Origin: Deltaproteobacteria bacterium TL4
GTDB taxonomy: Bacteria > SAR324 > NAC60-12
DNA length: 23,245 nt
Reading direction: 5' to 3'
Assembly: GCA_051382335.1 (NCBI GenBank)
Contig: JBBCAX010000099.1
Location: forward strand, 1-23,245
Shown: positions 14,095-15,435 of the stretch, one piece after another
How positions within the stretch are numbered: the first letter of the stretch is position 1
How the letters are laid out: every line of letters begins with the position of its first letter
The notes under the pieces: model-generated
Database searches by the model: none
What the model was told of the DNA's origin: nothing
Seen by the model: only the letters and a program-made list of their open reading frames with translations
Made by a program: the position numbers and the translations under genes

Positions 14095-15435
14095 ATGCCA
14101 CAACCTAATATTCCTATTTTTATTGTAGATGATGAATCTGCAATTTGTGAAACGCTTGAGGCTATTCTCAGGGACGAAGGCTATGAAGTAGAGTCCTTCC
14201 CTGATGCTGAATCTTTTCAAAAAAGGATCCTTGATTCTTTCCCTGCATTAGTCCTTTTAGACATCTGGCTACCTGGATTGGATGGAATGGAGATGTTATC
14301 CAAACTAAAAGAAAAGCATCCCGATTTACCTGTAATTATGATGAGTGGACATGCAGGGATAGAATCCGCAGTCAGCTCAATCAAACTTGGAGCATACGAT
14401 TTTCTAGAAAAACCGCTGCACCTTGAAGTACTCTTGGATAAAATATCAGGAGCCTTATTTCATAAGGGTAAACTTCAACGTGTGGAATTACCTTCTGATA
14501 TGCGCACTGAAATTGTGGACTACCGAAGTGAAATTAAAACCGATGTGGTTTCTCTCGTTGATTCAGAGGTACCTCAACGGACCTTGAGAAAAAACGTTGT
14601 CCTAAACGGGACAGGACTACTCAGTGGACGAAATACAGGAATCATCTTAAGCCCTTTAGAAGTAGACCAGGGCATTATATTTCAAATGTTAGATGGACAA
14701 CCGATTAGAGCACATATTACATCACTTGAAGATTTTTCATTAGACCCCACACATACACACTTTACCGCTAATTCAACGGCACTAGTTGACAATAATAAAC
14801 GCATTCGCACCGTGGAACATTTACTTGCAGCACTCCATATGTTCGGTGTTACTAATGTTTCCATTAAGTCTGACGAAGAAATTCCTAATATTGATGGATC
14901 TGCTGATGAATTTTGTAAATTAATTCAAGAAGCAGGGATTGAGGATCAAGCTGTTCCAGCAAAGAAAGCAGTGATTCATAAAAAAATCGCACTGGGAGAA
15001 GAGACCCTTAAAGAAAAATATATCTACGTAGAACCCGCTGATGAATTCGAAGTCATCATGAGAGTCGATTACCCTGCTCCCATTTTTGAACAAAAATTCA
15101 CATTCAATCCTCGACTCCAATCTTTTCAAAAAGAAATTGCCCCCGCACGATCATTTAATACCTTTGAAAATATTGACATGGCGCAAAAACAAGGAAAGGT
15201 CGGAAGTGGTTACCTCTATTCGCACATCATCATGTATGACGGAAAAGTCATTAACACGGAACTCCGTTACCCTGATGAATTCGTTCGACATAAAATTCTT
15301 GACTTGATCGGAGATCTCTACTTGCTAGGATACCCCATCCAGGGACGAGTTGTGGCAAATATGACCTCACACGCTTACAATCAGGCTCTTGTTCAACAAA
15401 TCTATACTGCACTCATCAGCGACACAAAATCATAA
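14095..15435 (+). CDS. lpxC: Fusion of an NtrX-like receiver domain and UDP-3-O-acyl-GlcNAc deacetylase LpxC
   Basis: One uninterrupted frame of 446 aa from ATG 14095. REC: IVDDE, LLDIWL (Asp56), MMSGH, GAYDFLEKP. LpxC from QRTL (14575): TVEH, IPNIDGSA, EIAPARSF, RYPDEFVRHKILDLIGD, TSH. Confidence 0.93.
   Translation: MPQPNIPIFIVDDESAICETLEAILRDEGYEVESFPDAESFQKRILDSFPALVLLDIWLPGLDGMEMLSKLKEKHPDLPVIMMSGHAGIESAVSSIKLGAYDFLEKPLHLEVLLDKISGALFHKGKLQRVELPSDMRTEIVDYRSEIKTDVVSLVDSEVPQRTLRKNVVLNGTGLLSGRNTGIILSPLEVDQGIIFQMLDGQPIRAHITSLEDFSLDPTHTHFTANSTALVDNNKRIRTVEHLLAALHMFGVTNVSIKSDEEIPNIDGSADEFCKLIQEAGIEDQAVPAKKAVIHKKIALGEETLKEKYIYVEPADEFEVIMRVDYPAPIFEQKFTFNPRLQSFQKEIAPARSFNTFENIDMAQKQGKVGSGYLYSHIIMYDGKVINTELRYPDEFVRHKILDLIGDLYLLGYPIQGRVVANMTSHAYNQALVQQIYTALISDTKS

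Follow-up and report, generated by a model that had tools for sequence, protein, structure and literature searches.

The window analysed here, a stretch of 23,245 nucleotides from a SAR324 bacterium, carries a gene in which a response-regulator receiver is joined to LpxC, the enzyme that commits cells to outer-membrane lipid A synthesis. The locus raises the question of whether a sensor kinase controls this enzyme directly. The analysis points to an affirmative answer, namely that an NtrY-like kinase probably acts on Asp56 of the fused receiver and so directly controls LpxC activity. The features of the fusion and its surroundings are shown in Table 1.

Table 1. Features of the REC-LpxC gene and its neighbourhood, in positions of the window
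Feature	Position	Strand	Basis or remark
Divergent intergenic region, minC / fusion	13829..14094	.	No sigma54 site (best score 7/12), no TGT-N12-ACA repeat
REC-LpxC fusion gene (P0001)	14095..15435	+	446 aa; sole lpxC of the genome
NtrX-type receiver domain, about aa 8-122, with D12, D13, D56, S84, K106-P107	14116..14460	+	Pfam, NCBIfam, alignment
Codon of predicted phosphoacceptor Asp56	14260..14262	+	Kept in 115/116 aligned fusions
Linker, aa 123-160	14461..14574	+	Longer forms have AAA+ and HTH domains here
LpxC deacetylase domain, aa 161-437	14575..15405	+	Pfam, TIGR00325, alignment, fold search
Leu176, replacing His19 of other LpxCs	14620..14622	+	Leu in 70/70 subfamily members; His in 49/49 stand-alone LpxCs
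TVEH motif: catalytic Glu241, Zn ligand His242	14809..14820	+	Alignment
Remodelled pocket: RSFNT (352-356) for RTFGF; S376-H377 for N-A	15148..15225	+	Alignment
HKILD motif: Zn ligands His399 and Asp403, Lys400	15289..15303	+	Alignment
TSH: catalytic His426; Ser where other LpxCs have the preceding Gly	15364..15372	+	Alignment
nusB, 12 nt after the fusion stop	15448..16041	+	Neighbour only in loci of the window's family (f1)

The joining of receiver and enzyme in a single frame, first proposed in an earlier note made from the letters alone, was borne out. The frame is intact with zero internal stops, and Pfam recognised both domains: Response_reg at aa 8-117 (98.3 bits against a cut-off of 30.2) and LpxC (PF03331) at aa 161-437 (244.4 bits against a cut-off of 27). 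TIGR00325 (lpxC) scored 214.5, over its curated cut-off of 187.25. A longer TTG start is possible at 14038, and the homologues start at the ATG at 14095. A codon check placed every residue named in the earlier note where it had been put, with D12 and D13 at 14128 and 14131, D56 at 14260, S84 at 14344 and K106 at 14410 in the receiver, and E241 and H242 at 14815 and 14818, H399, K400 and D403 at 15289, 15292 and 15301, and H426 at 15370 in LpxC. The best 120 homologues (query included; of 6322 matches among 8000 candidates scored) were 64-70% identical and 435-468 aa long, all contained both domains and all kept D56. An assembly artefact or chance read-through was ruled out on this basis, and relatives without the fusion or the Asp, which the earlier note had singled out as fatal to its proposal, did not appear among them. 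The mean majority share was 0.87 for the receiver, 0.90 for LpxC and 0.75 for the linker, so that conservation of the receiver comes close to that of the enzyme. An AlphaFold2 model of the whole chain had a pLDDT of 87.3 and a pTM of 0.79.

The receiver (PF00072) contained the acidic pocket, the phosphoacceptor Asp, the switch Ser, the Lys-Pro pair and the aromatic switch residue. Among the 116 aligned fusions, D12, D13 and F/Y103 were each kept in 114, D56 in 115, and S84, K106 and P107 in all 116. The NtrX type suggested in the earlier note was confirmed by NCBIfam, where NtrX was the best receiver model, and by a receiver signature common to the NtrX-like regulators located behind the kinase described below; the receiver tree (FastTree) was poorly resolved, with modest support (92). 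The whole protein is not classed as NtrX, as it scored 109.9 bits with the whole-protein model NF051870 against a cut-off of 600, and no Pfam match to AAA+ or HTH domains was found in the fusion. The linker, estimated beforehand at about 40 aa, is 38 aa long; its start was modelled with low confidence (pLDDT <50 at aa 124-131), and aa 152-164 were modelled as a strand running into LpxC.

In the enzyme part, H242, H399, D403, E241, H426 and K400 aligned with Pseudomonas aeruginosa LpxC and were invariant in the alignment; the roles of the Zn ligands, the catalytic Glu and His and the phosphate-binding Lys in LpxC are described in PMC11877204 and PMC13333357. A Foldseek search with the model returned LpxC structures, with 7CID as the top match (target TM 0.89, E 7.9e-29). 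Deacetylation of UDP-3-O-acyl-GlcNAc is the predicted activity of the fusion. The earlier description of a full LpxC held for the Zn ligands and catalytic residues and failed for the pocket, in which several residues are replaced throughout the subfamily. Relative to P. aeruginosa LpxC, GLH is changed to GLL, RTFGF to RSFNT, NA to SH (376-377) and KSGH to MTSH. N355, T356, S376, H377, M423 and S425 were each present in 67 of the 70 subfamily members, the remaining 3 being gaps, and these replacements were absent in the 49 stand-alone enzymes, except for S at 425 in 4. The canonical pocket letters were mostly retained in longer fused forms. In the P. aeruginosa enzyme His19 contacts inhibitors (PMC11877204), and where LpxC has Thr191, listed as catalytic (PMC13333357), 64/70 subfamily members have Ser353, by which the hydroxyl is kept. 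The pocket replacements may alter the acyl preference or lower the basal rate.

These replacements (L176 in 70/70, six others in 67/70) favour another reading that is compatible with direct control, in which the fusion would be an LpxC under signal control whose substrate preference has changed, for example in acyl chain length. It would have spread as a second enzyme for certain conditions, and some lineages would have come to keep it as their sole copy only later. Its coexistence with canonical LpxC in 19 of 43 fusion-bearing genomes of other phyla and in 6 of 104 Oligoflexia genomes fits such a history. Against it, the fold and catalytic residues are those of LpxC, the assignment of residues to the acyl passage is tentative, and this genome, with its ordinary set of lipid A genes, has no other LpxC, which means that the fusion must take the product of the resident LpxA as substrate. 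Taken together, this reading is rather doubtful.

The gene set itself was examined in the genome of the window (G000; 100% complete, 2.61% contaminated), where lpxA, lpxB, lpxK, lpxD and kdtA each scored over their profile cut-offs and where the fusion was the only lpxC, the search for a second copy proposed in the earlier note having returned none. The regulators that the earlier note had listed for checking were likewise not detected, with no protein over the LapB model cut-off and no YejM domain found in the genome. A TPR gene beside lpxA was considered as LapB and rejected, being a TPR_12 repeat protein far below the LapB cut-off. The label of housekeeping lpxC applies to this genome by virtue of the sole copy and does not extend to the fusion in general, as stand-alone canonical lpxC also occurred in the 19 fusion-bearing genomes outside family f1 mentioned above.

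A candidate for the orphan NtrY-like kinase that the earlier note had proposed to look for was found, by comparison with two small relatives, on a contig other than that of the fusion (P0271, G000:C183:4060-6297, locus L178). In P0271, hydrophobic segments at the N terminus and another at 301-326 were accompanied by HAMP, PAS, HisKA and HATPase domains, which agrees with the NtrY layout of N-terminal membrane segments, a periplasmic part and HAMP-PAS-HisKA-HATPase, with orthologues adjoining ntrX. The gene sits behind ccmC-ccmE with no adjoining regulator gene. Pfam NtrY_N (PF19312) had no match in the genome or in P0271, so the protein is called NtrY-like and not NtrY; it was 33% identical over 752 columns to the kinase of locus L343, which scores over the NtrY_N cut-off. 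The genome had at least 150 HATPase_c matches. Since kinase and fusion also lie on different contigs, their pairing rests on co-occurrence and on the receiver signature.

The phylum set comprised 88 genomes, 45 in the window's family (f1) and 43 in other families. In f1, LpxC was detected in 43/45 genomes, always in frames of 410-532 aa (fusion being judged in part of them from frame length), and the two misses were 51% and 57% complete. In the other families LpxC was found in 43/43 genomes, in frames of 283-406 aa, with a receiver in 0/30 of those examined for one. The kinase orthologue was present in 45/45 f1 genomes and in 38/43 genomes of the other families, with an H-box helix identical in f1 and in the relatives with stand-alone LpxC. 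An NtrX-like receiver-AAA+ gene directly followed the kinase in 29/31 loci of relatives with stand-alone LpxC (of the other two, one ends at a contig edge and one lacks the gene) versus 0/34 f1 genomes (2 of the 34 without downstream DNA). Genome-wide, an NtrX-like orthologue was present in 0/45 f1 versus 37/43 non-f1 genomes at a threshold of at least 426 bits, with at most 18 candidates scored per genome; the best f1 score of 367 corresponds to the paralogue background. An exhaustive receiver scan of G000 gave 218 matches, of which only one, the fusion itself, had the NtrX signature; the next-best receiver reached 80 bits versus 104-136 for NtrX-like receivers.

In one f1 genome (L250) the kinase and the fusion lie in one same-strand gene run. 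An NtrY-like kinase was directly upstream of the fusion in 3/19 fused metagenome loci (upstream DNA is short in several of the remaining 16), and P0271 was the best match in G000 of all three, with 355, 380 and 207 bits versus 129, 132 and 119. No kinase gene was conserved beside the fusion subfamily as a whole; HATPase matches occurred in 12/81 loci, from scattered families.

The promoters of stand-alone and fused genes differed as well. With sigma54 sites called by a consensus (score of at least 10/12 within 330 nt upstream), 29/49 stand-alone lpxC genes had a site versus 1/71 fused genes. The stand-alone sites were distributed as 13/19 in family f2, 16/19 in second copies in other phyla and 0/11 in families f3-f7, although NtrX was present in most of f3-f7. 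In genome G133, where NtrX has been lost, no sigma54 site precedes the stand-alone lpxC. A TGT-N12-ACA inverted repeat lay upstream of the sigma54 site in 17/34 regions versus 1.1 expected, the highest-ranking of some 700 patterns tested, on sequences that are related to one another. For fused genes inside operons, the promoter could lie further upstream. The regions upstream of stand-alone lpxC in loci L082-L098 and L281-L298 combine a sigma54 site, the repeat and an AT-rich spacer, from which a common enhancer-binding regulator of lpxC in four phyla would be predicted.

A comparable two-component system aimed at LpxC is known from Desulfovibrio (DVU2931/DVU2934, or Dde_3000/Dde_3003 in D. 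alaskensis). DVU2934, a sigma54 activator, targets lpxC alone (PMC3333781), and for D. alaskensis a sigma54 site is described at lpxC, together with a rise of lpxC upon mutation of the kinase (PMC4045070). The stand-alone lpxC of the relatives resembles that of Desulfovibrio in its sigma54 site and also has the TGT-N12-ACA repeat, whose half-sites are one base further apart than in the quoted DVU2934 site; DVU2934 is a putative counterpart of the NtrX-like proteins. Control in Desulfovibrio is transcriptional, unlike the arrangement here, where the receiver is in the enzyme and neither a sigma54 site nor an NtrX-like gene was found. NtrYX has been linked to lpxC level and envelope (PMC12444477, PMC7240162). 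The alphaproteobacterial NtrY/NtrX pair (NF051870) shares with the present system the best receiver match and a kinase with membrane segments, HAMP, PAS, HisKA and HATPase, and differs in that the fusion is without AAA+ and HTH, P0271 is without NtrY_N, and the alphaproteobacterial NtrX regulon contains dozens of genes.

As to the origin of the gene, named fusion loci include SAR324, Nitrospirota, Desulfobulbales, Oligoflexia and Leptospirales (best 80 of 527). Among 50%-identity representatives (33 of 150 scanned) a graded series was found, consisting of receiver-AAA+-lid-LpxC forms of 650-736 aa, receiver-HTH-LpxC forms of 491-505 aa and receiver-LpxC forms of 412-461 aa. The AAA+ part was visibly decayed in the long forms, of which the named ones come from Nitrospinota and Deltaproteobacteria. 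Such a series is what a read-through from an NtrX-like activator gene into lpxC, with later erosion, would leave, and it supports this origin. The origin from an ntrX-like gene next to lpxC, put forward in the earlier note, accordingly stands as regards the loss of AAA+ and HTH; the fusion probably did not form beside the lpxC of this lineage. The window's LpxC was 60-71% identical to same-subfamily fusions of other phyla (20/21; L076, from another subgroup, 42%) and 26-36% identical to the stand-alone LpxC of sister families. In a quick LpxC-domain tree the receiver-fused forms, together with a few short representatives of unknown status, stood apart from all 26 stand-alone loci enzymes (SH-aLRT 98 and 96). 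The tree was built from 59 loci and 31 representatives chosen by hand, its drawn root is not meaningful, and P0159 is a poorly aligned long branch. Fusion in place from the lineage's own lpxC was rejected by these identities and the tree, and the fusion likely came from outside the lineage. The simplest reading of the comparisons would be acquisition followed by displacement of the native gene, the alternative being differential loss of old paralogues. An unfused order lpxC ... ntrY-ntrX, a plausible pre-fusion arrangement, was seen at L419 and at G123:C48:2011-7317, where lpxC is split by a frameshift. Genome G137 carries two different receiver-LpxC fusions of 441 and 455 aa (L078, L300), and no stand-alone LpxC was found in it.

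The loss of NtrX was repeated in Oligoflexia (the class of G109; 104 genomes, at least 85% complete). NtrX was found in 0/9 genomes with only the fusion, in 6/6 with both copies, in 78/86 others with LpxC (5 of the 86 matches being fragments of uncertain type) and in 0/3 without an LpxC match, which gives 0/9 fusion-only versus 84/92 others with LpxC. All nine fusion-only genomes kept the kinase. The order ntrY-ntrX-gene Z is changed to ntrY-gene Z in the fusion-only genomes, with ntrX cleanly cut out. In the fusion-only Oligoflexus G107, a remnant of ntrX encoding the last 117 aa lies between the kinase and the next gene (L265:985-1335) and is 84% identical to the NtrX of its neighbour. In every Oligoflexia locus examined, ntrY-ntrX is followed by a gene (L332:2804-4081 and orthologues) that encodes about 420 aa and matches DUF4388; it is retained where ntrX has been lost.

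The pattern was less uniform in the 43 fusion-bearing genomes of other phyla. NtrX-like genes were present in 16/19 of those with stand-alone lpxC and persisted in 10/24 without a detected intact stand-alone lpxC, mostly Nitrospirota of unstated completeness. In 6/50 fusion-bearing genomes, both Leptospirales included, the kinase was not found at E<=1e-55; one of these six, G106, had a partial kinase match at a looser cut-off. The loss of NtrX amounts to about three or four events, not dozens, and the Fisher tests on co-occurrence are descriptive only, because the relatives are not independent. That NtrX disappears where stand-alone lpxC is replaced suggests that lpxC is the one indispensable NtrX target in these lineages and that NtrY senses the state of the envelope. 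Genomes with both copies, with an NtrX remnant and with clean NtrX loss represent stages of such a change, and the chances are about even that a two-component pathway controlling lipid A synthesis has moved, on more than one occasion, from transcriptional control to direct switching of the enzyme, through a mobile REC-LpxC module with a remodelled pocket.

The mechanism favoured by these results is as follows. In the relatives, NtrY-NtrX would activate stand-alone lpxC through its sigma54 promoter. A REC-LpxC gained by horizontal transfer, its receiver surface matching that of NtrX, could then couple to the resident kinase, displace the native lpxC and make NtrX dispensable. The fusion would act as a response regulator with LpxC itself as its output, and the orphan membrane kinase P0271 would set the phosphorylation of Asp56 and raise LpxC output. 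During normal growth the kinase would keep the receiver mostly unphosphorylated; under envelope stress Asp56 phosphate would build up and LpxC activity would be released, as in CheB-type regulators. The direction, with the phosphorylated state giving more LpxC, is somewhat likelier than its opposite, because the D. alaskensis and Caulobacter kinases hold their regulator down. Caulobacter NtrY acts mainly as a phosphatase (10.1101/2021.04.17.440287), and in Rhodobacter sphaeroides NtrYX loss raises lpxC by an effect that looks indirect (PMC7240162).

Phosphorylation by the same kinase could instead change the amount or place of LpxC, by tagging the protein for degradation, by a switch in dimerisation or by tethering it to the membrane kinase. 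Most known LpxC control works through abundance (PMC13333357), and the genome is without LapB over the cut-off and without a YejM domain, while the start of the linker appears flexible in the model (pLDDT <50 at 124-131). The whole-chain pTM of 0.79 is, however, above what would be expected of two freely moving domains, and direct modulation of LpxC activity has a precedent in LapB and MurA (PMC13333357), which makes control by amount or place unlikely.

An input from another kinase or from a small phosphodonor such as acetyl phosphate, with NtrY retained for some other cause, is distinctly improbable. The at least 150 HATPase_c matches and the phosphorylation of Caulobacter NtrX without NtrY (10.1101/2021.04.17.440287) speak for such an input; against it, two small marine relatives with only 13 and 5 HisKA matches keep the P0271 orthologue as their best-conserved full-length kinase relative to G000 (53% identity), and kinase orthologues occur directly in front of REC-lpxC elsewhere. 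The notion that the receiver is a leftover passenger of an old ntrX-lpxC read-through, kept for folding or solubility on an unregulated enzyme, draws on the decay of AAA+ and HTH in related fusions and on the lack of a kinase gene conserved beside the subfamily, and is highly improbable, given that the phosphorylation residues were kept (D56 in 115/116; S84, K106 and P107 in 116/116) while AAA+ and HTH were lost, and that the kinase with its docking helix was kept in 45/45 genomes in which no other NtrX-type receiver was found.

Response regulators with an enzyme as output are known, CheB and PleD among them. The fusion resembles these and the RpfG-type REC-HD-GYP proteins (10.1101/2021.11.05.467447) in having receiver, linker and catalytic domain in one chain, and differs from them in that their outputs are signalling enzymes and its own is an essential enzyme of envelope biosynthesis. 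With its receiver and intact catalytic domain, phosphorylation-dependent activity is predicted for the fusion by analogy with CheB. It shares the fold, the Zn ligands and the catalytic Glu and His with canonical LpxC; unlike canonical LpxC and the LpxC-FabZ fusion (NF009667), it has an N-terminal receiver, no FabZ domain, and replacements of His19 and RTFGF.

Known control of LpxC consists of FtsH/LapB/YejM, inhibition by LapB and activation by MurA (PMC13333357). This 2026 review lists only LapB and MurA as direct modulators and treats LpxC tuning outside E. coli as an open question. No description of a REC-LpxC fusion was found in the open-access literature searched. The words "fusion" and "fused" had zero matches in the main text of two reviews on LpxC control (PMC13333357, PMC12444477), and in 10.1101/2021.11.05.467447 the Desulfovibrio operon alone is mentioned. 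The fusion is hidden by automatic annotation, under which these proteins are called either LpxC or NtrX. Where relatives likely control lpxC through a transcription factor, a membrane sensor kinase here likely acts as a direct switch on the enzyme. If so, the committed-step enzyme of a biosynthetic pathway would be under direct aspartyl-phosphate control, and a drug-target enzyme would have a built-in allosteric switch with a named candidate kinase, amenable to tests with purified proteins.

In the window, the fusion is divergent from minCDE and followed by nusB. The coupling to nusB, which the earlier note had read as a sign of the housekeeping lpxC, is real at this locus and limited to 17/81 loci overall. 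The NusB protein (15448-16041) has a basic C-terminal extension of about 65 aa past the Pfam domain. Elsewhere in the window, two ORFs of 120 aa (8498-8860) and 660 aa (8905-10887, membrane-protein-like) had no Pfam match, and positions 1119-6353 encode a PPDK_N and PEP-utiliser protein (905 aa), a UbiA-family protein and an AMP-binding enzyme, which look like a small biosynthetic cluster.
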